Part shown: in pieces, positions 34,602 through 59,068 of the stretch
Layout of the letters: every line of letters begins with the position of its first letter
Numbering within the stretch: the stretch's first letter is position 1
NCBI GenBank assembly: GCA_045577925.1
Contig: JAZNJH010000025.1
Location: forward strand, 36,307-100,306
DNA from: Eubacteriales bacterium
Lineage (GTDB): Bacteria; Bacillota; Clostridia; Oscillospirales; CAG-272
DNA length: 64,000 bases
Direction of reading: 5' to 3'
Program-made: the position numbers and the translations under genes
Notes under the pieces: model-generated
The model's database searches: none
Seen by the model: the letters and a program-made list of their open reading frames with translations, nothing else
What the model was told of the DNA's origin: nothing

Positions 34602-35417
34602 TTATCTGCTGCCGACTGTTTTGCGCATACCCGAGGTATCATCAAGCAGGTCGCTGTTTTTCATGCGAAGATTGTCAGCTATCATCGCAATAAATTCGCT
34701 GTTTGTGGGCTTGCCGCGCTGGCGGCTTATGGTATATCCGAAGTAAGATGTGAGAGTATCAACGTCGCCTCTGTCCCATGCAACTTCAATAGCATGGCGG
34801 ATCGCTCTTTCCACTCTTGAGGGAGTTGTGCCGTGAATACGCGCAACTGTGGGATATAATGACTTTGTAACGTAGTTTATCATATCAGGGTCATTGATCG
34901 TACGTGTTATCGCAGTTCTTAAAAACTGATAGCCTTTTATATGTGCCGGAATACCAAGCCCGTGCATAACAGACGTAACGCTTCTCTCAATAATAGCATC
35001 ACGTCCGAAAAGCCTTGCATTTGCCGCCTTGAAGCGCTGATGCTCAAGCTGGCTTGTAATTATTCTTTTTACAAAATTATAATCAATCGGTTTTTTCAAA
35101 GTATATACTGATCTGCCGCCCATATCATACACGGAATCGTCAAGAACCATCTCTGAGGTAAGAATAACCTCGCTTGAATACGCGCGCCTTGTGTCTTCTT
35201 CGCCGTTTTCGCAAAAGCTTATAATACTGTCATAATCCATAAGCTCTCTGTCTGATATGATTATATTATAAAAGCTTCTTTCAAGTGCGCGCTTAAGCGA
35301 TTCACAACTTGATGCGGTTTCTATATTAACATAGCCCTCGTCTGCAAGCTTTGTGGATAATTCAGTTAAAAAATCTGTGTTTCTGTCTGCGATAAGTATT
35401 CTCTCTGTGATTGTCAT
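34602..35417 (-). CDS. spo0A: Sporulation master regulator Spo0A (atypical receiver domain)
   Basis: The C-terminal domain is near-identical to the Spo0A_C signature: GIPAHIKGYQFLRTAI...TTPSRVERAIRHAIEVAWDRG...GYTISRQRGKPTNSEFIAMIADNL. The N-terminal receiver reads ILIADRNTDF...NIIISDRELMD...LKKPIDY. Confidence 0.9.
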   Translation of the reverse strand: MTITERILIADRNTDFLTELSTKLADEGYVNIETASSCESLKRALERSFYNIIISDRELMDYDSIISFCENGEEDTRRAYSSEVILTSEMVLDDSVYDMGGRSVYTLKKPIDYNFVKRIITSQLEHQRFKAANARLFGRDAIIERSVTSVMHGLGIPAHIKGYQFLRTAITRTINDPDMINYVTKSLYPTVARIHGTTPSRVERAIRHAIEVAWDRGDVDTLTSYFGYTISRQRGKPTNSEFIAMIADNLRMKNSDLLDDTSGMRKTVGSR

Positions 35418-35575: not shown

Positions 35576-35722
35576 AAAGAAACAGGTCCCCTTCAACCTG
35601 CACTTTGCTTTGGAAATATTCCTTGTTGCTTAAACAGCAACAAGGAATATTTCAGGACGGCGTAAATTGACTTTCAATTTACCGCAAAGCTGTGCACGCC
35701 GTTGAAGGGCGCCTGTTTTGTT
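35576..35722 (-). terminator. Elaborate nested multi-helix element / terminator at the end of the pur operon
   Basis: Outer stem AACAGG..CCCTTCAAC (35581-35597) pairs with GTTGAAGGG..CCTGTT (35701-35717). Middle stem TGCAC/CTTTGC pairs with GCAAAG/GTGCA. Two inner hairpins: an 18-bp perfect one at 35613-35653 and a 9-bp one at 35662-35682. On the minus strand UUUCUUUUUU follows. Confidence 0.6.
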
Positions 35723-38700
35723 ATATTTTGTAATAATCGGATGCAGACTTGAAGAGCTTGATATCATAGTCGCCGTCAACGTTTTTGTATGTGCCCATAC
35801 TGATACGTTCGCTGTGTCCCATCTTACCGATTACTCTGCCGTCGGGAGATGTGATACCCTCGATAGCATAGTCGCTCGAGTTGGGGTTATATGATATATC
35901 AAACGTGGGATTACCGTTTATATCGGCATACTGAGTTGCGATTTGTCCGTTTGCCGCAAGCTTTTCTATCAGCTCTGCCGGTGCTATAAATCTTCCCTCT
36001 CCGTGTGAGATCGGTACGTTGTATATCTCACCCGGCTTTGTGTTCATGAGCCACGGGGACTTGTTTGAAAGAACGCGGGTACGAACGATTCTCGACTGGT
36101 GGCGTCCGATAACGTTATACGTAAGAGTCGGATCATTTTCACCGATATCGCATATTTCACCGTAAGGTACAAGTCCGAGCTTTATAAGTGCCTGGAAGCC
36201 GTTACATATACCGCACATAAGTCCGTCGCGGTTCTTAAGCAGATTGTTTACCGCATCTGTAAGCTTGGGGTTACGGAAGAAGGCAGTTATAAACTTACCC
36301 GATCCGTCCGGCTCGTCGCCGCCCGAGAATCCTCCGGGTATGAAGATTACCTGAGATTTTTCGATTCTCTTGAGTGCTTCCTCAACAGATTCTGCTATGT
36401 CAGCGCCCGTTATATTTCTTATAACGAATATATCCGCTTCAAGACCTGCGCGCTCTGCCGCTCTCGCGCTGTCGTATTCGCAGTTTGTTCCGGGGAATAC
36501 GGGAATGAGTACACGCGGCTTTGCTACCCCGATCTTTGCATGAGTAAGCGCGTTTGCATCTCTGTGAGTTTCGGGTAAATTAAGCTTCTTTTCTTCAACC
36601 TTTATATTGCAGGAGAAAACGCTCTCAAGCTTGTTTTCGTAAATTTCAAGAAGCTCGTGCGAGCATACCTTTTCTTCTCCAAGTACAAACGGGCACTTCT
36701 TTGTTGTCTTACCGAGGTATATTTCACCCTCAACAGGAGCATCGTCGCACATTTCGAGCACGAACGCGCCGTAATTGTATCCAAAGAGTGTTTCAAGTTT
36801 GGTCTCTTCATTAAACTCAAAGCCAAGACCGTTACCAAAGCACATCTTCATAACTGCTTCTGCAACGCCGCCGTAGGTGGGTGTGTAAGCAGCACTTACT
36901 CTGCCTGCGCGCATAAGAGCGTTTACCTTATCGTAAAGAGCAAGCTCAGACTCGCTTACGGGAAGTTCGTCCTTGTCATATTCGGGCACAAGAAGGATTA
37001 CTCTGCTGTCTGCATTTTTGAATTCAGGCGAAACTACGTCTAAAAGCTTACCTGTCGTTACAGCAAATGAAACGAGTGTTGGCGGAACGTCTATATTTTC
37101 AAAAGTACCGCTCATCGAGTCCTTACCGCCTATTGAAGCAGACGAGTAATCAAGCTGTGCCGCAAAAGCACCGAGTAGTGCCGCCATAGGCTTGCCCCAA
37201 CGCTTAGGATCGCGCATCGGCTTTTCAAAATATTCCTGGAAAGTAAGGAATACTTCGTTTTTATCAGCACCCGTTGCGATGAGCTTGGATATTGATTCAA
37301 CAACCGCAAGATATGCGCCGTGGTAGGGGCTCTTTTCTGTAATATAGGGGTTATATCCCCAGGACATGAAGGAAACGGTATCCGTTTCGCCATGCTCAAG
37401 CGGGATCTTATGTACCATTGCCTGAATAGGTGTATGCTGGAGCGAGCCGCCAAACGGCATAAGCACGCTTCCTGCGCCGATAGTTGAGTCAAAACGCTCG
37501 GAAAGTCCGCGCTTTGAGCATACGTTAAGATCGCCTGCGAGTGCGCGCATACCCTTTTCAAAGCTTTCAGGTATTTCCTTTTCAAATGCACTCGGGGTGT
37601 CAAGTGTTATGTCAATATGCTTTTCAGCACCGTTAGAATTGAGAAATTCTCTTGATATATCAACGATCTTCTTGCCGTTATGAACCATAACGAGTCTCGG
37701 CTCTGCCGTAACTTTTGCAACGGGAGTTGCTTCAAGGTTTTCGCTCTTTGCTATCTCTATAAAGCGCTCTGCGTCCTTTGCTTCAACGACTATTGCCATT
37801 CTCTCCTGGCTTTCGGATATTGCAAGCTCTGTTCCGTCAAGTCCGTCATATTTCTTAGGAACTGCATTAAGATTAATCTCAAGACCGTCTGCAAGCTCAC
37901 CGACTGCAACAGACACGCCGCCTGCTCCAAAGTCGTTACAACGCTTTATAAGTTTTGCCGCTTCTGCGTTTCTGAAAAGTCTTTGTAATTTTCTCTCTTC
38001 GGGAGCATTACCCTTCTGAACTTCTGCACCGCAGGTTTCAAGAGAAGCCTTTGTATGCGATTTTGACGAGCCTGTTGCGCCGCCGCAACCGTCACGGCCC
38101 GTTCTGCCGCCGAGAAGTATTACTATATCACCGTCGCCGGGCACTTCACGGCGAACGTTCTTTGCCGGAGCCGCACCGAGTACAGCACCGATCTCCATAC
38201 GCTTTGCCGCGTAGCCGTCGTGATATAATTCGTCAACCATACCCGTAGCAAGACCGATCTGGTTACCGTATGAGGAATATCCTGCCGCCGCAGTCGTAAC
38301 TATCTTACGCTGAGGAAGCTTGCCGGGGATAGTTTCAGCAACAGGGCGTGTCGGGTCAGCCGCACCCGTTACTCTCATTGCCGCATATACGTATGAACGT
38401 CCCGAAAGGGGATCGCGTATTGCACCGCCGATACAGCTTGCCGCACCGCCGTAGGGCTCGTTCTCTGTTGGGTGGTTGTGTGTTTCATTTTTAAAGAGAA
38501 GCAGATAATCAACGTCTTCTCCGTCGATATTTGCCTTTATCTTAACTGTACAAGCGTTTATCTCGTCAGACTCATCAAGAGCATCGAGTTTGCCCTCACT
38601 CTTTAAGTAGCGTGCACCGAGTGTTGCTATATCCATAAGATTAACGGGCTTTGTTCTGCCAAGCTTTTTGCGTGTTTCCACATATCTGTTGTACGCAGCT

Positions 38701-39428
38701 TCAAGCTTTTCGTCCTCAAATTTAACGTTGTCAACAGTAGTTAAAAACGTTGTGTGACGGCAGTGGTCCGACCAATACGTATCTATCATACGTATTTCTG
38801 TTATAGTGGGATTGCGCTTTTCTTCTCTGAAATAGTCGCGGCAGAATCTGAGGTCGTCCGCGTCCATCGCAAGTCCCATATCGCTTGCCATTTTCGCAAG
38901 CTCTGCATCTTCAAGGTCTATAAATCCCTCAATAGTTTTAACGTCCGCAGGGATCTCCGTTTCCATTTTAAGTGTTTCGGGAAGCTCAAAGGAAGCAAAA
39001 CGGCTTTCAACGGGGTTGATTACGTATTTCTGAATCTCCTCGAGTTCCTTTTCGCTTATATCACCGTAAAGCGCATATATCTTTGCAGTACGTACAAGGG
39101 GTTTTTCGCCCATGGATATGATCTGTATGCACTGTGCCGCAGAGTCAGCTCTCATATCAAACTGACCGGGAAGGCTTTCAACGGCAAATACCGCACAAGC
39201 ACCCTCAAAGTCGGCACTATCGTATATATCGTCGATCTGAGGCTCTGAAAACACCTTTGCTTTTGCCGCTTCGAAAAGGTCTGCGTCGATATTTTCCACG
39301 TCATATCTGTTAACAACGCGAAGATCATCGAGCCCTTCGATTCTGAGCACCGTGTTTATGTCGGACTTAAGAGAGCGTGCTTCGGCAGCAAACTCGCGCT
39401 TTTTCTCGACAAATATTCTGTATACCAT
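35721..39428 (-). CDS. purL: Phosphoribosylformylglycinamidine synthase, single-chain large form
   Basis: Start moved to ATG 39428 (MVYRIFVEKK), after AAAGGAAA. 1235 aa, with a C-terminal GATase region (GICNGFQAL, SHGEGRF). Confidence 0.92.
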   Translation of the reverse strand: MVYRIFVEKKREFAAEARSLKSDINTVLRIEGLDDLRVVNRYDVENIDADLFEAAKAKVFSEPQIDDIYDSADFEGACAVFAVESLPGQFDMRADSAAQCIQIISMGEKPLVRTAKIYALYGDISEKELEEIQKYVINPVESRFASFELPETLKMETEIPADVKTIEGFIDLEDAELAKMASDMGLAMDADDLRFCRDYFREEKRNPTITEIRMIDTYWSDHCRHTTFLTTVDNVKFEDEKLEAAYNRYVETRKKLGRTKPVNLMDIATLGARYLKSEGKLDALDESDEINACTVKIKANIDGEDVDYLLLFKNETHNHPTENEPYGGAASCIGGAIRDPLSGRSYVYAAMRVTGAADPTRPVAETIPGKLPQRKIVTTAAAGYSSYGNQIGLATGMVDELYHDGYAAKRMEIGAVLGAAPAKNVRREVPGDGDIVILLGGRTGRDGCGGATGSSKSHTKASLETCGAEVQKGNAPEERKLQRLFRNAEAAKLIKRCNDFGAGGVSVAVGELADGLEINLNAVPKKYDGLDGTELAISESQERMAIVVEAKDAERFIEIAKSENLEATPVAKVTAEPRLVMVHNGKKIVDISREFLNSNGAEKHIDITLDTPSAFEKEIPESFEKGMRALAGDLNVCSKRGLSERFDSTIGAGSVLMPFGGSLQHTPIQAMVHKIPLEHGETDTVSFMSWGYNPYITEKSPYHGAYLAVVESISKLIATGADKNEVFLTFQEYFEKPMRDPKRWGKPMAALLGAFAAQLDYSSASIGGKDSMSGTFENIDVPPTLVSFAVTTGKLLDVVSPEFKNADSRVILLVPEYDKDELPVSESELALYDKVNALMRAGRVSAAYTPTYGGVAEAVMKMCFGNGLGFEFNEETKLETLFGYNYGAFVLEMCDDAPVEGEIYLGKTTKKCPFVLGEEKVCSHELLEIYENKLESVFSCNIKVEEKKLNLPETHRDANALTHAKIGVAKPRVLIPVFPGTNCEYDSARAAERAGLEADIFVIRNITGADIAESVEEALKRIEKSQVIFIPGGFSGGDEPDGSGKFITAFFRNPKLTDAVNNLLKNRDGLMCGICNGFQALIKLGLVPYGEICDIGENDPTLTYNVIGRHQSRIVRTRVLSNKSPWLMNTKPGEIYNVPISHGEGRFIAPAELIEKLAANGQIATQYADINGNPTFDISYNPNSSDYAIEGITSPDGRVIGKMGHSERISMGTYKNVDGDYDIKLFKSASDYYKI

Positions 39429-39448
39429 AATTATTTCCTTTCTTAAGC

Positions 39449-40708
39449 TCAAGCCTTCAGCGCTCTCGCTCCGATATCGTGGCGGAAGTACTTGTTTTCA
39501 AAAGTTATCTTTTCGGCTTCGGCATATGATAAGTCTACTGCCTCTTTAAGAGTGCCGCCGACACATGACACTGCAAGAACTCTGCCTCCTGCAGTGTAAA
39601 GGCTTTCGCCTTCACGCTTTGCTCCTGCGATATAAACGCATGCGCCTGTATCACGTTCGCCCTTTATTTCAAAGCCCGTTTCATACTTTCCGGGATATCC
39701 GTTTGATGCAAGCACCAATGTGCATGAGTGCTTGTCTGCAAACTTAACCTCTGTTTCAGAAAGCTTCCCTGCGCTTACGGCGCGCATTACGGTAAAGAGG
39801 TCGGACTCTAAAAGCGGAAGCACCGCCTGAGTTTCGGGATCGCCGAAACGGCAGTTATATTCGATAACCTTAGGTCCGTTTGCGGTAAGCATAAGTCCGA
39901 AGTAAAGGCAGCCTTTAAACGTTCTGCCTTCAGCCTTCATAGCATTTACGGTCGGCATGAATATTTTATCCATACACTCTGCTGCAATATCTGCAGTATA
40001 GTACGGATTGGGTGCTATCGCTCCCATTCCGCCCGTGTTGAGCCCTGTATCGTTGTCGCCCGCTCTCTTATGGTCCATTGACGACACCATTGGAACAAGA
40101 GTGTTTCCATCTGTGAAAGCAAGCACCGATACCTCGGGACCCTCTAAAAATTCTTCAATAACCACGCGGCTGCCGCTTTCGCCGAAAAGCTTATCGGCCA
40201 TCATTGAGCGTACCGCTTCTATTGCTTCATCACGAGTCTGTGCTATTATAACACCCTTGCCAAGCGCAAGTCCGTCTGCTTTTACAACAACGGGTGCCGG
40301 AATTGTGTTAAGATATGCTATTGCCGATTCCATATTATCAAAGGTCTCGTAAGCTGCTGTGGGAATAGAATATTTCTTCATAAGGTTTTTTGAGAAAACC
40401 TTGCTTCCCTCAATAATAGCCGCCGCCTTTGTAGGACCGAAGCATTCGATTCCGATTTCATTTAGTGCATCTACCGCACCGAGCACAAGCGGATCATCGG
40501 GAGCAACTACCGCATAGTCAATGCCCGTATTTTTTGCAAATTCAACAATGCCGTCTATATCCTTTGCGCCGATATTCACACATTCAGCATCGCGTGATAT
40601 ACCGCCGTTACCCGGCAGTGCATAAAGCTTTTCTATTTCAGGCGACTTTTTCAGCGCCTTTATAATTGCATGCTCGCGGCCGCCGCCGCCAACTACCATT
40701 ACTTTCAT
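39449..40708 (-). CDS. purD: Phosphoribosylamine-glycine ligase
   Basis: MKVMVVGGGGREHAI...; ATP-grasp core; 419 aa. Confidence 0.93.
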   Translation of the reverse strand: MKVMVVGGGGREHAIIKALKKSPEIEKLYALPGNGGISRDAECVNIGAKDIDGIVEFAKNTGIDYAVVAPDDPLVLGAVDALNEIGIECFGPTKAAAIIEGSKVFSKNLMKKYSIPTAAYETFDNMESAIAYLNTIPAPVVVKADGLALGKGVIIAQTRDEAIEAVRSMMADKLFGESGSRVVIEEFLEGPEVSVLAFTDGNTLVPMVSSMDHKRAGDNDTGLNTGGMGAIAPNPYYTADIAAECMDKIFMPTVNAMKAEGRTFKGCLYFGLMLTANGPKVIEYNCRFGDPETQAVLPLLESDLFTVMRAVSAGKLSETEVKFADKHSCTLVLASNGYPGKYETGFEIKGERDTGACVYIAGAKREGESLYTAGGRVLAVSCVGGTLKEAVDLSYAEAEKITFENKYFRHDIGARALKA

Positions 40709-40748: not shown

Positions 40749-41933
40749 TCAGTGGTGGAAGAGTCTCATGCCGGTAAACGCCATAGCAATACCGTACTTG
40801 TTGCAGCAATCAATAACTATATCGTCGCGGATAGAGCCGCCGGGCTCTGCTATATATGAAACGCCGCTTCTGCGTGCGCGTTCAATGTTATCATCAAACG
40901 GGAAGAATGCGTCAGAACCAACTGACACACCTGTGATCGTTGCAAGGTATGCCTTCTGCTCTGCTCTTGTAAAGGGCTCGGGACGTACTGTAAAGTACTT
41001 CTGCCAATTGCCTTCGTCAAGAACGTCACCGCAGTCCTCGGAAATATATACGTCGATAACGTTATCGCGATCGGGTCTGCCAAGCTCAGGCTTGAAAGGA
41101 AGTCCGAGAACCTTGTCGTGCTGTCTTAAGTGCCATATATCAGCCTTTGTACCTGCAAGTCTTGTGCAATAAATTCTCGACTGCTGGCCTGCACCAACGC
41201 CGATAGCCTGTCCGCCCACAGCATAGCATACAGAGTTTGACTGTGTATATTTAAGTGTGATAAGCGCGATTATAAGGTCGATCTTTGCCGATTCGGGAAT
41301 TTCCTTGTTTTCGGTAACAATGTTTGTAAGAAGCTCACGGTCGATCTTGAAGTTGTTTCTTCCCTGCTCGAAGGTGATACCGAACACCTGCTTGATTTCT
41401 TTTTCTTCGGGAATATAGTCAGGGTCGATCTTTACTATATTATAATTGCCTTTTCTCTTGGACTTGAGTATTTCAAGAGCTTCGTCGGTATAACCGGGAG
41501 CGATAACTCCGTCTGAAACCTCACGCTTGATTATTGTTGCTGTTGTTACGTCGCAAACATCGGAAAGTGCGATCCAGTCACCGAATGATGACTGACGGTC
41601 CGTACCTCTTGCGCGAGCGTATGCGCAGGCAAGGGGAGAATCGTCAAGACCTTCGATATCGTCAACAAAGCAAGCCTTTTTAAGCTTTTCGTCAAGCTTT
41701 TTACCTACCGCGGCAGACGTGGGGCTTACGTGCTTGAATGACGTTGCACAGGGCATACCCGTTGCCGCCTTTAACTCCTTAACAAGCTGCCAGGAATTGA
41801 AAGCATCAAGAAAGTTTATGTATCCGGGGCGGCCCGAAAGTATTTCTATCGGGAGCTCTGCACCATTTGACATATAGATTCTGGAAGGCTTCTGATTGGG
41901 GTTACAACCGTATTTAAGTTCAAATTCTCTCAT
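40749..41933 (-). CDS. purH: AICAR formyltransferase (AICARFT domain only; no fused IMP cyclohydrolase/MGS domain)
   Basis: LKYGCNPNQ, SFKHVSP and GSIRD motifs in a 394-aa protein that lacks the N-terminal MGS-like IMPCH domain. Confidence 0.8.
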   Translation of the reverse strand: MREFELKYGCNPNQKPSRIYMSNGAELPIEILSGRPGYINFLDAFNSWQLVKELKAATGMPCATSFKHVSPTSAAVGKKLDEKLKKACFVDDIEGLDDSPLACAYARARGTDRQSSFGDWIALSDVCDVTTATIIKREVSDGVIAPGYTDEALEILKSKRKGNYNIVKIDPDYIPEEKEIKQVFGITFEQGRNNFKIDRELLTNIVTENKEIPESAKIDLIIALITLKYTQSNSVCYAVGGQAIGVGAGQQSRIYCTRLAGTKADIWHLRQHDKVLGLPFKPELGRPDRDNVIDVYISEDCGDVLDEGNWQKYFTVRPEPFTRAEQKAYLATITGVSVGSDAFFPFDDNIERARRSGVSYIAEPGGSIRDDIVIDCCNKYGIAMAFTGMRLFHH

Positions 41934-41944
41934 TGCTCTGCTCC

Positions 41945-42670
41945 TTATTTCACAAATTTATTTATAAGTCTTGATTCATACGTGCCGTCTGCAATTCTGA
42001 TATATCTGACATAAAGCGAGATCTTGTTATCAGCGTTAAGACTGTTCCAAATATCGTTTGTAAATGCATCTATATCATTATCGATAGCAACTCTTTCAGG
42101 CTCACCCTCAAAGCTCGGAAGAGGACTTCCGTCCTTCATATAAGTGTGAATAAAGTTTCCTATACCTGCAAGCGAGGGGTATGAGTATGTATATCTCATG
42201 CAGTCGGTGCCGTCACGGTCAGCAGACTTGAGTATGCTCATTTTGTATGTGTATTTGCCACCGTCGACCTTAAGTGCGGCGCTGATACGGGGTGTGAAGT
42301 TAGGCGCATCGGGCTCAAAGCAGCGTGTTTCGAGCGCTTCTTCAAACGTCTTGCCCTCTTTCATATAATCGTAAATAGTGTCAGTCTGATCACCGTTTGT
42401 AACGATAGTCGTATTATCCCAAACCTTTACGGGAGAATAAATAATAAGCGAGGGATCTTCAACCTTGGATTCATCAAAGGGCGCTGTGATTATCTCACCG
42501 CCTGCCTTTTCTTCAAAAACACGATTACGGCTGTTTTCGCTTCTTCCCATAATAAAGTATGCGAAAACTGCATTTTCACCGTCGGGTGTTGTGCCGACAA
42601 CTATTCCGCGTCCGGGATAGGTGCATGAATTCAAAAGGTCGTTTAATTTCAAAGTATCAAGTGCGCTCAT
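41945..42670 (-). CDS. purO: IMP cyclohydrolase, PurO-type
   Basis: YPGRGIVVG...AYFIMGRSENSRNRVF matches the archaeal-type IMP_cyclohyd family pattern. Confidence 0.75.
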   Translation of the reverse strand: MSALDTLKLNDLLNSCTYPGRGIVVGTTPDGENAVFAYFIMGRSENSRNRVFEEKAGGEIITAPFDESKVEDPSLIIYSPVKVWDNTTIVTNGDQTDTIYDYMKEGKTFEEALETRCFEPDAPNFTPRISAALKVDGGKYTYKMSILKSADRDGTDCMRYTYSYPSLAGIGNFIHTYMKDGSPLPSFEGEPERVAIDNDIDAFTNDIWNSLNADNKISLYVRYIRIADGTYESRLINKFVK

Positions 42671-42685
42671 AATTATCTTCCTTTC

Positions 42686-43303
42686 TTAGTTAACAAGTTC
42701 GTTTTTCTTTTTGGAAACGATATCCCGACATACCTTTTCGCATGCAACGGGAAGTATCTTCCATTCTGCCTGTCGCATTACACGGCGCTGAAGCATTTCG
42801 GGTGTATCGTGTGCTCCAACGGCTACCGCTTTCTGCATGATTATTCTGCCGCCGTCGGGTACTTCGTTTACAAAATGCACCGTTGCGCCCGTCACCTTGA
42901 CTCCGTACGCAAGCGCCGCTTCATGAACCTTGAGTCCATAAAAGCCCTTCCCGCAGAAAGAGGGGATCAAAGATGGGTGTACGTTGATTATTCTTTCAGG
43001 ATAACGCGATGTGAATTTTTCCGTAAGTATACACATAAATCCCGCAAGTACGATAAGATCGATCTCGTATTCATCAAGAAGCTTTATGATCTGATCTTCT
43101 ATATCTACCTCGCTGCCGCGCTTGACGATAGCGGTATCTATTGAATTTTCCCTTGCCCTTACGAGAGCATAAGCATCGCTGTTATTTGAAATAACGAGCT
43201 CTATTTTACCGTGCTTGATAATATTTTTGTTTTGGGCATCAATAAGTGCCTGCAGATTCGTTCCGCCTCCGGACACGAGAACTGCTATTTTTGCTGTGGT
43301 CAT
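42686..43303 (-). CDS. purN: Phosphoribosylglycinamide formyltransferase
   Basis: IAVLVSGGGTNLQALID...NVHPSLIP...TGATVHFV; 205 aa. Confidence 0.92.
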   Translation of the reverse strand: MTTAKIAVLVSGGGTNLQALIDAQNKNIIKHGKIELVISNNSDAYALVRARENSIDTAIVKRGSEVDIEDQIIKLLDEYEIDLIVLAGFMCILTEKFTSRYPERIINVHPSLIPSFCGKGFYGLKVHEAALAYGVKVTGATVHFVNEVPDGGRIIMQKAVAVGAHDTPEMLQRRVMRQAEWKILPVACEKVCRDIVSKKKNELVN

Positions 43304-43342: not shown

Positions 43343-43966
43343 TTAATCTTTAATTTCGCCGGCAAGCTTTTTAACAAGCGGAATAAAGCAACCGCCAAGC
43401 GTATTGCCGACAACCGCAAGTCCTAAAAATCCCCATACTTCGGGATTGAACATTCTTGCCGTGAAAAAGTAATACATATCTGCTATCGAGTGCTCATATC
43501 CCGAAAGAATGAACACTGGAACGCAAAAGATTATGCCTGCGATACTGTTTTTTCTTGCGAATATCGTTACTGCAACATACATAAGTATTCCGCACATAAA
43601 AGCAGATGCAAGTGTGGAAGGTATACCTCTTACAAGCTTACCCTCGCACATAACGCGCGCAGTTTCCCAAAGTGCATCAGACGTTGATATATTGCATATG
43701 TAAGCAGCAGTAAGCGTTCCGAGCATATTACCTATAAGGCAGGTAAAGAGAAGCGGTATATCCTGCTTTTTGTTTTCGCTGTATACTATCGCTCCGACTT
43801 TTCCTGTAAACAGGTGAAGTCCAAGCATGCAAATGGTAAGAAGCGCAACTGCAAAAAAGACAGCGCCCTCAATTCCGCCAAGCTTTAAGTTGACCGTACC
43901 GCCTATTCCTATCATCACGCCGCCCGCAAAACTAAGCGCAAGCGACTGACGTGCGCGGCTTAGCAA
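43343..43966 (-). CDS. Short formate/nitrite transporter (FNT) family channel
   Basis: GYEHSIADM matches the FNT signature GFEHSIANM. Multi-TM protein of 207 aa, shorter than typical FocA/NirC. Its start overlaps the purM stop by 7 nt. Confidence 0.7.
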
Positions 43967-45003
43967 AGCACCACCTTATCTGCGTCCTCGGTAATTTCAC
44001 CGATAACGCGCGCGTCCGGTTCTCCGTTTGCCGCAAGTATTTCAAGTGCTGTGTCAACGTCCTTTGCATCAACAACGAACGCCATGCCAACACCCATATT
44101 GAATGTGTTATACATATCTCTTTCGGGAATATTGCCCGTCTTCTGTAAAAGCTCGAATACAGGAAGCTTCGGAAGCTTTTCCTTGTATATCTTAGCGCAA
44201 AGTCCGTCGGGTATTGCGCGCGGAATGTTCTCATAGAAGCCGCCGCCCGTTACGTGAGATACGCTCTTTACAGTGATTTTTTCAAAGAGAGCAAGCATCG
44301 GCTTTACATATATCTTTGTAGGCGCTAAAAGGGCTTCTCCGAGCGACTTGCCGTCAAGCTCTGCTCTCGGTGCTTTGAGGTCGCAGTTTTCAACGTCAAA
44401 TACATGTCTTACAAGAGAAAATCCGTTGGAATGAACACCGCTTGAAGGAATACCGATAACAACGTCACCGGCCTTCATCTTGCTCTTGTCAAGAACTGCA
44501 GGTCTGTCTACTATACCAACAGAAAATCCTGCAAGGTCGTACTCGTCTTCGGGATAGAAGCCGGGCATTTCTGCCGTTTCTCCGCCGATGAGCGCCGCAC
44601 CCGCCATAACACATCCGTCTGCAACGCCTTTAACTATGTCTGCAACTCTTTCGGGCACGTTCTTTCCAAGTGCAATATAGTCAAAGAAGAAAAGCGGCTT
44701 TGCGCCTGAGCATATTATATCGTTTACGCACATTGCAACGCAGTCGATACCTACTGTATCATGCTTATCCATAAGAAAAGCGATTTTTAGCTTAGTACCA
44801 ACGCCGTCGGTGCCGCCAACAAGAACGGGAGAGGTATATCCCTTCAAATCAAGGGCAAAAAGTCCTCCGAAATCACCGATACCCGAAATTGCACCTTCGG
44901 TAACAGTTTTTGCAATGTGTGCTTTCATCAGTTCAACTGCTTTGTAGCCGGCTGTTATATCAACGCCCGCTGCCTTGTAGCTTTCGCTGTAGCTCTTTGA
45001 CAT
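43960..45003 (-). CDS. purM: Phosphoribosylformylglycinamidine cyclo-ligase (AIR synthetase)
   Basis: YKAAGVDI...GGTDGVGTK...DYIA; 347 aa. Confidence 0.93.
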
Positions 45004-45049: not shown

Positions 45050-46474
45050 TTATTCTTTTCCGTCCCAGCAATACGTGCAAAGCTTGCACTTGTCTATGCC
45101 GATAGCTTCGATTATTCCTTCAAGCGACTGGAATTCGAGAGAATCAAAGTGAAGCGCTTCGGCGATTTTAGCACGAAGCTTCTTTCCTCTTTCAGTAGAA
45201 GCATCGGCATATTCTTCTATATGATTCAAGCCCTCGTCTCCTTCAAGCTCGATTATCGTGCGTCTTGCTATAAGCTCAAGCTCTGAGGTTGCACGTGAGA
45301 AGTTAAGATATTTACAACTGTACATTATCGGAGGACATGCCGAGCGCATGTGCACCGATTTTGCCCCGTGCTCGTAAAGGAAGTCTACCGTTTCCTTGAG
45401 CTGTGTTCCGCGCACTATAGAGTCGTCAACAAAAAGAAGGTTTTTATCCTTGATAAGCTCCTTTACGGGAATCTGCTTCATTTTTGCTATTCTGTTTCGC
45501 TCAGCCTGAGTTGGCGGAGTGAAGCTCCTTGGCCACGTTGGCGTATACTTTATAAACGGACGCGCAAACGGTTTTCCGCTTTCATTGGCATACCCTATCG
45601 CATGCGGAGTTCCCGAGTCCGGCACACCGCAAGCATAGTCAATATCCTGCGCAAGCCCCTTTTGTTTATCGTTCTCGGCAAGTATCTTGCCGTTTTTATA
45701 TCTCATAAGCTCGACGTTTACGCCCTCGTATATCGAGTTGGAATATCCGTAATACGTCCACAAGAACGAGCACACCTTCATATTTTCGCCGGGTGCGGCA
45801 AGCTCGGTCACCGTATCGGGTGTGAGTTCTACAATTTCGCCCGGTCCGAGCTCTTTTTCTATCTCATAGCCAAGCTTTTCAAAGGCAAACGACTCAAACG
45901 AAACACTGTGACCGTCATCATTCTTTCCGATTATAACAGGGAGTCTGCCAAGCTTGTCTCTTGCCGCTATAAGCGTTCCGTCGTTCTTCAGGATAAGTAC
46001 GGACAAAGAACCGTCAATTACATCCTGCGCAAATTTTATTCCCTCTTTAAAATCACTCTTGTGATTTATCAGCGATGCAACGAGCTCAACCGTGTTTACT
46101 CTGCCGCCCGTCATTACGCCGAAGTGTCCGCCGTTTGTTAGAAGATATTTTTCAATAAGCTCGTCAGCATTATTAACGCGTCCGACTATTGAAATGGCAT
46201 ACGTTCCGATATTCGAACGGATAAGCAACGGCTGCGGTTCCGAATCGCTTATACAGCCTATCGCCGAATTGCCCTTCATCTCAAGAAAGACCTTATCAAA
46301 TTTCGTTCTAAACGGTGAATTTTCAATATTGTGTATATCGCGCTGAAGCCCTATCTCCGTATCGTACGCCGCCATACCCGCACGTCTTGTGCCAAGGTGC
46401 GAGTGGTAGTCTGTTCCAAAGAACACGTCCGAGATCGCATCGCGCTTGCTAGCTACGCCAAAAAAGCCTCCCAT
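45050..46474 (-). CDS. purF: Amidophosphoribosyltransferase homologue lacking the N-terminal catalytic Cys
   Basis: PRPP motif [13 protein letters not shown]. Fe-S ligand-like Cys residues are conserved (KVCSFLW, SCKY, CKLCTYC). The N-terminus is MGGFFGV where PurF has CG(V/I)FG. In-frame TAA TAA stops lie directly upstream of the ATG. Confidence 0.8.
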
Positions 46475-46492
46475 AAGTCCTCCGCTTCTTTA

Positions 46493-46987
46493 TTAACCGT
46501 TGAATCTTGCGCTGATCGCAGCATCCTTTTCTCTTACCTTGTCTGCAGCTGCCTTGCGTGCCGCATCAAGCTTATCTGCAAGCGAAGCATCTGCCGTTGC
46601 AAGTATCTGTATTGCCAACAGTGCCGCGTTAACAGCGCCGTCGATAGCAACGGTTGCAACAGGTATGCCGGAAGGCATCTGTACTGTGGCAAGGAGCGCG
46701 TCAACGCCGTCAAGGTTTGTTGCTCTTACAGGAAGACCTATAACGGGCAGCGTTGTATTTGCCGCCATAGCTCCTGCTAAATGCGCAGCCTTACCTGCCG
46801 CTGCTATAATTACTCCTATGTTATTCTCTTTTGCGCCGCGTGCAAACTCTGCCGCTTCAACAGGAGTTCTGTGTGCGCTGAGTACACGCACTTCGAAACC
46901 AACTCCGTATTCTTTAAGTGTATCAATAGCCTTTTCCACGATATTAAGATCGCTGTCGCTACCCATAACAATTCCGACTTTTTTCAT
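46493..46987 (-). CDS. purE: 5-(carboxyamino)imidazole ribonucleotide mutase
   Basis: Start moved to ATG 46987 ([14 protein letters not shown]), after GGAGGG. SAHRTP motif. Confidence 0.92.
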
Positions 46988-47012
46988 AATTCCCTCCGTT
47001 TTGCCGTGACGG

Positions 47013-47063
47013 CACAAAATAAAAAAGGACACACCTACCCCATAAAACGGAATACGGCTGCCC
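47013..47063 (-). terminator. Riboswitch-controlled intrinsic terminator (expression platform)
   Basis: On the minus strand, GGGCAGCCGUAUUCCG-UUUUA-UGGGGUAGGUGUGUCC forms 13 of 16 pairs, then UUUUUUAUUUU. Its 5' arm overlaps the conserved CUGGGCA of the aptamer. Confidence 0.55.
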
Positions 47064-47131
47064 AGACGGTCGGCTTATATACTTCCCGACTCCATTGCGT
47101 AAACTCGCTCATCCGTCAGTCATCGAGAAAC
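47059..47131 (-). promoter_or_regulatory. Candidate ZTP (pfl-motif) riboswitch aptamer
   Basis: Minus-strand RNA GUUUCUCGA-UGACUGACG-GAUGAGCGAGUUUACGCAAUGGAG-UCGGGAAGU...CCGUCUGGGCA. P1 is GUUUCUCGA/UCGGGAAGU. UGACUGACG corresponds to consensus UGACUGGCG and CCGUCUGGGCA to consensus CCGCCUGGGCA, with compensatory GACGG/CCGUC pairing. The consensus is recalled from memory. Confidence 0.6.
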
Positions 47132-47138
47132 CACTATT

Positions 47139-47168
47139 ATTTTACACCATTTTATACCTTTTTGTCAA
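47139..47168 (-). promoter_or_regulatory. Sigma-A promoter of the pur operon
   Basis: On the minus strand: TTGACA (47163-47168), 18 nt, TAAAAT (47139-47144). Confidence 0.6.
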
Positions 47169-47249: not shown

Positions 47250-47278
47250 TTGACAAAATGACCGATTCGTACTATAAT
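47250..47278 (+). promoter_or_regulatory. Consensus sigma-A promoter for the phosphoesterase gene
   Basis: TTGACA (47250-47255), 17 nt, TATAAT (47273-47278). A second TTGACA lies at 47229-47234. Confidence 0.65.
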
Positions 47279-47315
47279 GTACACGATAGAAATACCTTAC
47301 GGGAGAACACAGATT

Positions 47316-47852
47316 ATGAAGATAATGATAGCATCAGACATACACGGCTCTGCAAAATATGCAGGCATGCTCATCGAGAGATTTAACGAATCAGGCTCTG
47401 ACAAGCTCTTGCTTCTTGGCGACATACTATATCACGGACCAAGAAACGATCTGCCCGAAGAATATGCTCCCAAAAAGGTTATAGAACTTTTAAACCCGCT
47501 GAAGGATAAGATCCTCGCAGTACGCGGAAACTGTGACACTGAAGTTGACCAGATGGTGCTCGATTTTCCGATACTTGCAGACTATGCGATAGTCACGTCA
47601 GGCTCGCGCACGATATATGCAACGCACGGGCACAAATATAACCCCGATTGTCCTCCGCCGCTCTCTCAAGGCGATGTTCTTCTATGCGGTCACACTCATG
47701 TGACTAAAGCAACTGAGTACGAGAGTTTTACATACATCAATCCCGGCTCCGTATCGATACCGAAAGAGGATACAAAGAGGGGGTATATCATACTAGAAAA
47801 CGGCGTTTTCACCTTCTATGACATTGAGGGAGATTATTTGATGAAATACTAA
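47316..47852 (+). CDS. YfcE / MJ0936-family metallophosphoesterase
   Basis: Start moved to ATG 47316 (MKIMIASDIHGS). GDILYHGP, GNCD and GHTH motifs. Confidence 0.85.
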   Translation: MKIMIASDIHGSAKYAGMLIERFNESGSDKLLLLGDILYHGPRNDLPEEYAPKKVIELLNPLKDKILAVRGNCDTEVDQMVLDFPILADYAIVTSGSRTIYATHGHKYNPDCPPPLSQGDVLLCGHTHVTKATEYESFTYINPGSVSIPKEDTKRGYIILENGVFTFYDIEGDYLMKY

Positions 47853-57946: not shown

Positions 57947-59068
57947 TTACTTTTCCCCCTTTAAAGATTTGTTTCTCTTTGCCACGTCTGCAGAAAGTAT
58001 GGTATATACAACCGAGACAAGCGGAATAAAGAGTATCATACCGATAATACCGAAAAGCTCTCCGCCAACGTATACAGCAAGCAAAGTCCAGAGCGCCGGA
58101 AGTCCTACCGAACGGCCAACTATTTTAGGATATATAAGATTACCTTCTATCTGCTGAATAACAAGAAAAGCAATTACAAATATCATAGCGCTTTTCACGT
58201 CTATCAGCACGATAAGGAATGCTCCGACTGCGCATGAAATAAAAGCTCCGAAATAAGGAATAAGCGCAAACACGGCCGTCAGCGCAGATATAACTCCCGC
58301 ATAAGGAAGTCTGAGTATAAGCATTGTTATTAACAGCAGTACTCCCAGAATCAGCGCCTCTAAAAATTGAACCGATAAGAATCTCTTGAACGTAGAATTC
58401 AGTGTGGAAAAGAAATAAACGATCTTATCGCTCACGCTTTTACTTGTGTATGCACAAGCCAGACTTTTAAGCTGATTTGACAGTTTTTTCTTGCCTGAGA
58501 GAATATATATGCAGATAACAAGCGATATTACCGCCATAAAAACTCCGCCTGTTATCGCGCCTGCCGCACCTATTACGGTTGTAAATATCTGTCCGATTCC
58601 GGGAACAACCTTTTGAGTTAAAAAACTGAGGTCAAATTTTTCAAGCACACTCTGGAGGCTTCCAAGCTCTACACCAAGCTTGGAAGCAACATCTGTTATT
58701 GCTCCCCAATTTTTCTCAATAGATGACTTTATTATCGGCACCGTTGAAGCAAATTGCGGTACAACGAGTATTATTACAAGCGATATAAATGCTATTACAA
58801 CAATAAATGACAGTATCAGGCTTATAGTGCTGACAACAGAATCCTTGGGCACTCGCTTTTTAAAAAGGCCTCTTATTCCTTTTTCGATCGCACACATTAT
58901 AACGTTAATGACTGCTGCTGCAAGTCCTCCGTAAACAAGGGGCGAGATTATTCCGATTCCGCTTTTAAATACAGATGCAACAACATTAAAGTTTACAAGC
59001 CCAACGTACAGAACCACAGCAATGCAAACTATTAAAAGTATCTGTTTGAAGCTAAGTCTTTTTTCCAT
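57947..59068 (-). CDS. AI-2E family (PerM/YtvI-like) transporter
   Basis: A 373-aa, 7-8 TM protein. LIPYFGAFISCAVGAFLI and QQIEGNLIYPKIVG motifs. Confidence 0.8.
   Translation of the reverse strand: MEKRLSFKQILLIVCIAVVLYVGLVNFNVVASVFKSGIGIISPLVYGGLAAAVINVIMCAIEKGIRGLFKKRVPKDSVVSTISLILSFIVVIAFISLVIILVVPQFASTVPIIKSSIEKNWGAITDVASKLGVELGSLQSVLEKFDLSFLTQKVVPGIGQIFTTVIGAAGAITGGVFMAVISLVICIYILSGKKKLSNQLKSLACAYTSKSVSDKIVYFFSTLNSTFKRFLSVQFLEALILGVLLLITMLILRLPYAGVISALTAVFALIPYFGAFISCAVGAFLIVLIDVKSAMIFVIAFLVIQQIEGNLIYPKIVGRSVGLPALWTLLAVYVGGELFGIIGMILFIPLVSVVYTILSADVAKRNKSLKGEK

Follow-up and report, generated by a model that had tools for sequence, protein, structure and literature searches.

A cysteine-less branch of the PurF family in purine operons of gut and rumen bacteria, with a probable role in ammonia-dependent phosphoribosylamine synthesis

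PurF is the textbook N-terminal nucleophile (Ntn) amidotransferase and carries out the committed, feedback-regulated step of purine synthesis. It is also able to use ambient ammonia (NH3) (PMC3261824; PMC12017579), and E. coli PurF mutants altered at the nucleophile Cys1 lose glutamine-dependent activity while NH3-dependent activity is kept (Mei and Zalkin, 1989, cited in PMC3261824). Entry of external NH3 through the glutamine site has been proposed (PMC12017579). Cys-less PurF-like proteins that cluster with purine genes, called PurF', have been described from Crenarchaeota (Brown, Hoopes, White and Sarisky, 2011, Biol Direct 6:63; PMC3261824), and their authors proposed, as a hypothesis only, that these have an ammonia-dependent phosphoribosyl pyrophosphate (PRPP) aminotransferase activity (PMC3261824). 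Here we analyze a Cys-less PurF-family gene that lies in a purine operon within 64,000 nucleotides of DNA from an Eubacteriales bacterium (contig JAZNJH010000025.1, positions 36,307 to 100,306), a stretch which as a whole is called the window below. Our literature searches found no description of a bacterial Cys-less or ammonia-dependent PurF, and a paper on the Fibro-purF motif has no bearing on the Cys question.

The closest structure in the PDB is that of Bacillus subtilis PurF (1ao0; E 7e-42), which aligns over residues 2-398, and separately over the C-terminal Cys pair, at an identity of ~28%. In this alignment the nucleophile Cys1 of 1ao0 is replaced by G2 of the window protein. The HRGQEG motif of 1ao0 aligns with HLGTRR, changing Arg26 to Leu (L27), and GHVRYATAGGGYEN of 1ao0 aligns with GCISDS plus an 8-residue gap, with the loss of Arg72, Tyr73 and Thr75. 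S76 and D77 stand in the place of Arg72 and Tyr73, and the glutamine loop is 8 residues shorter than that of B. subtilis PurF. Further along, AHNGNL aligns with SIVGRV, where the oxyanion-hole residue Asn102 has become Val (V97), and SDTEV aligns with NTVEL, where Asp127 has become Thr (T128). Only Gly98 (Gly102) and His26 (His25) are retained among the glutamine-site residues, and residues 20-28 form a new family motif, GTDYHSHLG. An earlier note on this DNA, made from the sequence alone, had pointed by eye to divergence at the HVRYATAG and AHNGNL/SDTEV positions, which the 1ao0 alignment confirms, and everything else that it had read directly from the sequence is likewise correct. It had also proposed a comparison with TIGR01134, the PurF equivalog model, and with its catalytic columns. 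Here the window protein scores 179.9 bits, below the cutoff of 350, with Cys1 and the glutamine-site residues replaced; other Cys-less members score 138-200 bits, and canonical PurFs taken from the tandem loci described below score 525 and 539 bits. The protein therefore differs from the PurF equivalog in three of the features that were tested (score, Cys1 and glutamine site) and agrees with it in four (fold, phosphoribosyltransferase motifs, Fe-S ligands and context).

The start of the gene was examined as well. On the minus strand the sequence that joins it to the upstream gene is, from 5' to 3', AAC GGT TAA TAA AGA AGC GGA GGA CTT ATG (stops and ribosome-binding site at 46478-46495), which bears out the MGGFFGV start and the in-frame stops upstream that had been reported earlier. 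These stops leave no room for a 5' extension or a propeptide able to supply a Cys. All 120 of the closest database proteins (78-95% identity, 473-475 aa) start with MGGFFG or MGGSFG, and all 86 relatives taken from genome and metagenome loci start with MGGF or MGGY. The idea that the gene is an artefact or a pseudogene, whether through a mis-called start, a frameshift, an assembly error or descent into a functionless relic, is refuted by the comparative data and keeps practically no probability. Its sole point in favor is the score under the TIGR01134 cutoff, against which stand an intact open reading frame with a ribosome-binding site and upstream stops, more than 200 independent homologues with an identical N-terminus, full-length aligned representatives that down to 33% identity all lack the Cys, and conservation of both domains together with a confident structure prediction. 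More specifically, the loss of an upstream Cys codon through sequencing or assembly error, which the earlier note had kept in mind, is ruled out by the N-termini of the homologues and the upstream stops.

The phosphoribosyltransferase (PRTase) domain has kept its catalytic features. The PRPP loop VDDSIVRGT is present at residues 349-357 (D350, D351, S352, R355, G356 and T357), the pyrophosphate (PPi) loop GVPDSG is present at 283-288 (D286 and S287), and the flexible-loop Arg316 is kept as well. In addition, Cys235, Cys387, Cys466 and Cys469 match the Fe-S ligands Cys236, Cys382, Cys437 and Cys440 of B. subtilis PurF and may hold a cluster. Both the PRPP loop and the Cys residues matching the Fe-S ligands had been recognized before, and the 1ao0 and family alignments agree. 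A helical insert of ~35 residues at ~402-441 (window 45150-45270), past the PRTase core and ahead of the C-terminal Cys pair, occurs throughout the Cys-less family and is absent from canonical PurF in the alignments. An AlphaFold2 model built from 39 family sequences has a mean pLDDT (predicted local distance difference test) of 86 and a pTM (predicted template modeling score) of 0.85. Its low-confidence stretches are only 119-121 and 310-318, of which the latter is the PRTase flexible loop, a loop that is disordered in substrate-free PurF structures. The top Foldseek match of the model is again 1ao0 (TM 0.82/0.86, full length); full-length matches comprise B. subtilis, Arabidopsis and E. coli PurF at TM 0.81-0.86 (E. 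coli 0.81-0.83), with GlmS and AsnB far behind. The predicted structure has the two-domain PurF architecture, an Ntn hydrolase fold joined to a type I PRTase fold, over the full length of the protein.

Judged by sequence, the window protein belongs to a large branch of the PurF family that lacks every glutamine-splitting residue and retains the sugar-phosphate site. When one genome was scanned for each GTDB species, at least 575 species proved to have close relatives, and the best 80 of these matches, which are the related genome loci studied here, all come from metagenome-assembled genomes of gut and rumen Clostridia (Oscillospiraceae, Acutalibacteraceae, Christensenellaceae and Lachnospiraceae). 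A search of 1.84 billion cluster representatives returned 7,651 matches at E <= 1e-3 and 648 at E <= 1e-30, both counts including canonical PurFs. The best full-length representatives, down to 33% identity, still lack the Cys and have the GTDYHSHLG motif in common. Members that could be named come from Muribaculum intestinale and other Muribaculaceae (Bacteroidales), candidate division WOR-3, Cloacimonadota, Stahlbacteria and a Pacearchaeota archaeon (DPANN). On two archaeal contigs (L164, 1299-6297, and L165, 4429-9386) the Cys-less purF homologue lies directly 3' of the PolD large-subunit gene with a TctA-family gene on its other flank, and purine genes were not seen nearby. Since the contigs of the archaeal members encode PolD, these members are not crenarchaeal.

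To follow each catalytic column, 128 Cys-less members were aligned with 78 canonical PurFs encoded in related operons from metagenomes. At the Cys1 position the Cys-less members have Gly (99), Ser (13), Ala (4), Thr (3) or Lys (1) and never Cys, which is present in 78 of 78 canonical proteins. The Arg26 position is Leu in 115 of the 128, the Arg72/73 position is Ser in 118, the Tyr73/74 position is Asp in 110, and Thr75/76 is deleted in all 128, while most members have Ile or Val at the Asn101/102 position and Ser, Thr or Gln at the Asp127 position. The PRPP loop DDSIVRGT is kept in at least 123 of the 128 (at its first position 113 have Asp and 14 have Glu), the PPi loop VPDS in at least 122, the flexible-loop Arg in 125 and the four Fe-S Cys in at least 126. 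Loss of the Cys is, on this alignment, a cross-phylum trait of the family and not a peculiarity of the window gene. When protein pairs with a C-domain identity of 0.7-0.8 are compared, the identity of the N-terminal domain is 0.675 in the Cys-less family versus 0.681 in canonical PurF. For a given C-domain divergence the N-terminal domain is as conserved as the canonical one. The former glutaminase domain is therefore not decaying, and the alignments indicate strong purifying selection on both domains.

The gene is associated by location with genes of de novo purine synthesis. In the window the minus-strand order is promoter-like site, ZTP riboswitch, purE, Cys-less purF, purM, FNT (a formate/nitrite-transporter-family gene), purN, purO, purH, purD and purL (Table 1), and in ~65 of the 80 related genome loci the Cys-less purF is found between purE (or purE-purC) and purM. 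In 13-14 of the 80 it stands alone amid unrelated genes. In Muribaculum intestinale YL27 (CP021421.1; L162, 6276-11404) it lies 24 bp 3' of purL; etfB-etfA-acyl-CoA dehydrogenase genes follow it in this cultured Bacteroidales strain. No dedicated glutaminase partner recurs in the 80 related loci, in the 14 stand-alone loci (where the neighbors are mutually unrelated by inspection) or in Muribaculum, and the genes of the window operon are all accounted for as pur genes plus the FNT channel. The earlier note's second reading, in which a separate amidotransferase partner is needed, thus finds no conserved extra glutaminase gene to build on in any of these places.

The same operon slot can also be filled by a canonical enzyme. 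In one related locus (L022) a canonical purF lies directly 5' of the Cys-less copy, and in its product a propeptide precedes CGVFGV, and the motifs HRGQES, GHVRYGTTG, AHNGNL and SDTEV are present. A metagenome scan seeded with this protein, of which 80 canonical loci were examined, showed canonical purF in the same operon slot in ~30 of the 80 and standing alone in ~45, and the other pur proteins of the canonical-slot operons are as similar to those of the window as are the pur proteins of the Cys-less operons. Six further loci have both genes in tandem and intact in the order opposite to that of L022. In total, tandems of a Cys-less and a canonical purF were found in 7 of 160 related loci, all from gut Clostridia (L022, 8417-11425; L090, 4572-7452; L093-L095, L127 and L133), where the two genes overlap or are separated by 11-120 nt. 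The tandem pairs come from several lineages; their Cys-less copies are 61-80% identical to one another and their canonical copies 63-72%, a co-divergence that implies long co-retention. Within the L022 pair, the sole tandem that was scored, identity is 23% in the N-terminal and 35% in the C-terminal domain, matching the cross-family means of 26% and 35%, and so the two forms are ancient paralogues and not recent duplicates. On a neighbor-joining tree of PurM plus PurH from 59 operons, a crude tree for which sampling was seeded on the two PurF proteins, the operons switch between the three types (Cys-less, canonical or both) no fewer than 9 times, versus a mean of 18.4 for shuffled labels. Repeated mutual replacement in one slot argues that both forms supply phosphoribosylamine (PRA), whereas the stable tandems argue that the two forms are not fully redundant. 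The Cys-less form is the lone purF in ~65 of 80 operons, and related operons can have a canonical purF in its stead or, in the seven tandems, beside it.

With its PRTase site complete, its glutamine site missing and its gene in the purF slot, NH3-dependent synthesis of PRA is the most likely function of this protein. We consider that the gene product is probably a glutamine-independent, ammonia-dependent PRA synthase. This is also the first of the two readings given in the earlier note, no glutamine hydrolysis and use of free ammonia, and it is the better supported one, with the glutamine site dismantled family-wide, the PRPP site kept, and a place in the purF slot of an operon for inosine monophosphate (IMP). 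In such an enzyme the PRTase domain would bind PRPP and Mg, and NH3 would displace pyrophosphate, with an Ntn domain that would no longer be able to bind or hydrolyze glutamine. Free NH3 may reach C1 of PRPP through the remodeled former glutamine pocket and the interdomain channel, and the N-terminal domain may have been retained as a scaffold, with a role in closing the PRTase flexible loop and in forming oligomer and regulatory interfaces. An enzyme of this kind would suit ammonia-rich anaerobic habitats and could serve as an isozyme where a canonical PurF co-occurs. Several observations weigh against this assignment. The literature searches found no biochemical or genetic data for any family member. 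PurL, which is still a glutamine-using enzyme, retains its glutaminase Cys, indicating that the loss of glutamine chemistry is specific to step 1 and that the organism has not abandoned glutamine as a nitrogen donor; ammonia abundance alone thus does not explain why the glutaminase was lost at step 1 only. The co-diverged tandems show that the two forms are not simply redundant, which leaves room for cooperation, and the frequency of stand-alone canonical purF genes makes a second, non-operon copy outside of the window plausible in the source genome. Finally, the polar residues D22, Y23, S25, H26, S76 and D77, which occupy the old glutamine-ligand positions and are invariant across the family, hint at a specific pocket function beyond passive NH3 entry.

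Cooperation could take the form of mixed tetramers, in which the Cys-less protein would work only when joined to a canonical PurF from another place in the genome. Its part there could be that of a pseudo-glutaminase subunit with a regulatory or scaffolding task, or that of a PRTase supplied with NH3 by the glutaminase of its partner. The seven operons with an adjacent intact canonical purF in both gene orders, the co-divergence of these pairs and the common occurrence of stand-alone canonical purF on related metagenomic contigs all speak for such an arrangement, as do the intermolecular hand-over of NH3 proposed between molecules of the PRPP amidotransferase (PPAT) Ade4 of yeast (PMC12017579) and the constant company of PurF kept by crenarchaeal PurF' (PMC3261824). 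We nevertheless regard it as unlikely, given that the ammonia channel of PurF is intrasubunit (Krahn et al., 1997, cited in PMC12017579), that the Cys-less protein has a complete PRTase site of its own, that ~65 of 80 operons including that of the window have the Cys-less form only, and that the two forms repeatedly exchange in one slot.

The hint from the polar residues leads to another reading, in which the N-terminal domain has been remodeled for a new function, either as a site for ammonium capture and deprotonation or for a nitrogen donor other than glutamine, which would make this a mechanistically new enzyme. Purifying selection on this domain equals that on canonical PurF, the replacement of glutamine-binding residues by D22, Y23, S25 and H26 (within GTDYHSHLG) and by S76-D77 is family-invariant, and many deep-branching members have a Ser or Thr at position 2 that could in principle act as an Ntn nucleophile. 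However, position 2 is Gly in the clade of the window protein and varies among Gly, Ser, Ala, Thr and Lys across the family, which means that there is no conserved nucleophile, and no donor-related gene is conserved nearby in the 80 related loci, the 14 stand-alone loci or Muribaculum. With conservation patterns as its sole basis, we judge a new function of this kind to be quite unlikely. Very unlikely is a reading in which the protein, as a PRPP-dependent transferase, catalyzes some reaction that does not yield PRA and is merely located in purine clusters. The score below the PurF equivalog cutoff and the family-specific insert of ~35 residues near the C-terminus would fit this view, but purD and all later steps except purC are encoded in the operon, where nothing else would supply PRA, canonical purF and this gene interchange in one slot, and the PRTase catalytic residues match PurF specifically. 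Ammonia-dependent PRA synthesis remains our preferred reading.

Table 1. Coordinates of the Cys-less purF gene, its parts and the surrounding purine operon in the window.
Feature	Position	Strand	Remarks
Cys-less PurF-family gene (subject of this study)	45050-46474	minus	474 aa open reading frame, N-terminus MGGFFGV
N-terminal Ntn-type domain	45785-46474	minus	~residues 1-230; glutamine site dismantled
PRTase domain and Fe-S ligands	45050-45784	minus	features kept as in PurF
Ribosome-binding site GGAGGA	46478-46483	minus	directly 5' of ATG, read from sequence
Two in-frame TAA codons	46490-46495	minus	5-6 codons upstream of ATG; first TAA is the purE stop
Sigma-70-like promoter TTGACA-18-TAAAAT	47139-47168	minus	11/12 consensus match only; just 5' of riboswitch
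ZTP (pfl) riboswitch aptamer	47053-47133	minus	Rfam RF01750, 48.4 bits versus gathering score 39, full-length match
purE	46493-47032	minus	TIGR01162, 191.6 bits over residues 19-172
purM	43960-45003	minus	TIGR00878, 434.5 bits; immediately 3' of Cys-less purF
Formate/nitrite-transporter-family membrane protein	43343-43966	minus	207 aa; Pfam PF01226, 85.9 bits versus cutoff 34.6; under all NCBIfam cutoffs
purN	42686-43303	minus	TIGR00639, 187.1 bits
PurO-type IMP cyclohydrolase	41945-42670	minus	Pfam PF07826, 220.3 bits
5-Aminoimidazole-4-carboxamide ribonucleotide (AICAR) formyltransferase-only PurH	40749-41933	minus	NF005492, 675.9 bits
purD	39449-40708	minus	TIGR00877, 525.3 bits; consumes the phosphoribosylamine of step 1
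purL (formylglycinamidine ribonucleotide synthase)	35721-39452	minus	large single chain; TIGR01857, 1819 bits; class I glutaminase intact (GICNGFQ, Cys1083)

Within the 64-kb window there is no second purF homologue. The description of this gene as the only purF in a riboswitch-controlled purine operon therefore stands for the window, with the proviso that the riboswitch is of the ZTP and not the purine class, and it should not be taken to cover the whole genome. A purC was also not detected in the window (tblastn, E <= 1), whereas purC sits between purE and purF in 28 of the 80 related loci. The mechanical open reading frame of purE begins at a GTG (47032) that falls in the downstream platform of the riboswitch. 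The real start is likely the ATG at 46987 behind GGAGGGA, in keeping with a model match that begins at residue 19 of the open reading frame. Between the ZTP aptamer and this ATG there is a T-rich run (gtcctttttt atttt), where a simple scan called no terminator. The FNT-family protein may import formate for the supply of 10-formyl-tetrahydrofolate, and a homologue of it is found between purM and purN in 7 of the 80 related loci (L001, L022, L031, L036, L053, L061 and one more). In place of a bifunctional PurH, PurO and a formyltransferase-only PurH share the final two steps of the pathway, a split that is seen in most of the related loci.

Outside of the operon, a 12/12 match to the sigma-70 consensus (TTGACA-17-TATAAT) at 47250-47278 on the plus strand faces away from the pur promoter and precedes a gene for a YfcE-type phosphodiesterase (47277-47852, plus strand; NF006988, 232 bits). 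A gene for a Spo0A-like response regulator (34602-35417, minus strand; TIGR02875, 183.5 bits where the cutoff is 200) is located just 3' of purL, and a gene for a YtvI-like sporulation membrane protein is found at 57947-59068. The presence of these last two genes is consistent with a spore-forming Clostridia host.

Cys-less PurF is a real, ordinary-looking and mis-described enzyme family. A branch in which the absence of the Cys is deeply conserved would constitute a natural experiment on the non-hydrolytic roles of a glutaminase domain. If the proposed function is true, then many anaerobes of gut and rumen would draw directly on free ammonia, and not on the glutamine pool, for purine synthesis. 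The label amidophosphoribosyltransferase (glutamine-dependent, EC 2.4.2.14) that annotation pipelines apply probably names the wrong nitrogen donor for the Cys-less proteins, and metabolic models of gut bacteria as well as PurF inhibitors aimed at the glutamine site would be affected. Since Muribaculum intestinale YL27 is a cultured and genetically relevant carrier, the question is experimentally accessible. The consequences would reach further if the rebuilt N-terminal domain (D22/Y23/S25/H26, S76-D77 and the shortened loop) were a purpose-built module that captures and gates ammonium or uses another nitrogen donor, an unlikely idea that is suggested by residue conservation. In that case the family would be the main point of entry to purine synthesis for a large part of the gut and rumen anaerobes among Clostridia and Bacteroidales, and for several candidate phyla. 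The committed purine step would no longer be coupled to glutamine in much of the gut microbiome, and a tandem with canonical PurF could form a nitrogen-source switch.

Among known systems, the [4Fe-4S] PurF of the B. subtilis type (1ao0/1gph; TIGR01134; EC 2.4.2.14) has in common with the window protein the two-domain fold (TM 0.82-0.86), the PRPP loop, the PPi loop, the flexible-loop Arg, the four cluster Cys and a place in the pur operon. The Cys-less protein differs from it in having neither a propeptide nor Cys1, in the replacement or deletion of Arg26, Arg72, Tyr73, Thr75, Asn102 and Asp127, in the glutamine loop that is 8 residues shorter, and in the extra helical segment of ~35 residues before the C-terminal Cys pair. 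AsnA versus AsnB, and the NH3-dependent versus glutamine-dependent forms of NadE, are examples of ammonia forms of glutamine-coupled reactions that sometimes co-exist as isozymes. The logic of an ammonia-using counterpart is the same; however, in AsnA and NH3-dependent NadE the glutaminase domain is absent or the proteins are unrelated, whereas Cys-less PurF keeps a full-size, conserved Ntn domain that is not a glutaminase. The E. coli Cys1 mutants and the NH3 side activity of PPAT (PMC3261824; PMC12017579) resemble the expected activity of the Cys-less family more directly, in that PRA would be made from PRPP and free NH3 with no glutamine activity. The former are point mutants made in the laboratory and the latter accompanies an otherwise intact amidotransferase, whereas the Cys-less family has a glutamine site that was rebuilt throughout and has since been conserved over long evolutionary times.

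The crenarchaeal PurF' proteins also lack the N-terminal Cys and, as in the window, have purine genes adjacent to them. They differ in that PurF' always occurs beside a canonical purF and often has Ala or Val at the Cys position, whereas the window protein is bacterial, has Gly at this position and belongs to a family that is the sole operon purF in most loci. Moreover, PurF' has been described only in Crenarchaeota, while the present family, which was compared with PurF' by description and not by sequence, spans Clostridia, Bacteroidales, WOR-3, Cloacimonadota and DPANN archaea. A Cys-less PurF and the ammonia hypothesis are therefore already on record for Crenarchaeota (PMC3261824). What the present family adds to PurF' (PMC3261824) is its breadth, with a cultured Muribaculum and major lineages of the gut among its carriers, a glutamine site rebuilt systematically and in full, including a fixed 8-residue loop deletion, and its position as the sole purF in most operons, with three interchangeable operon states.

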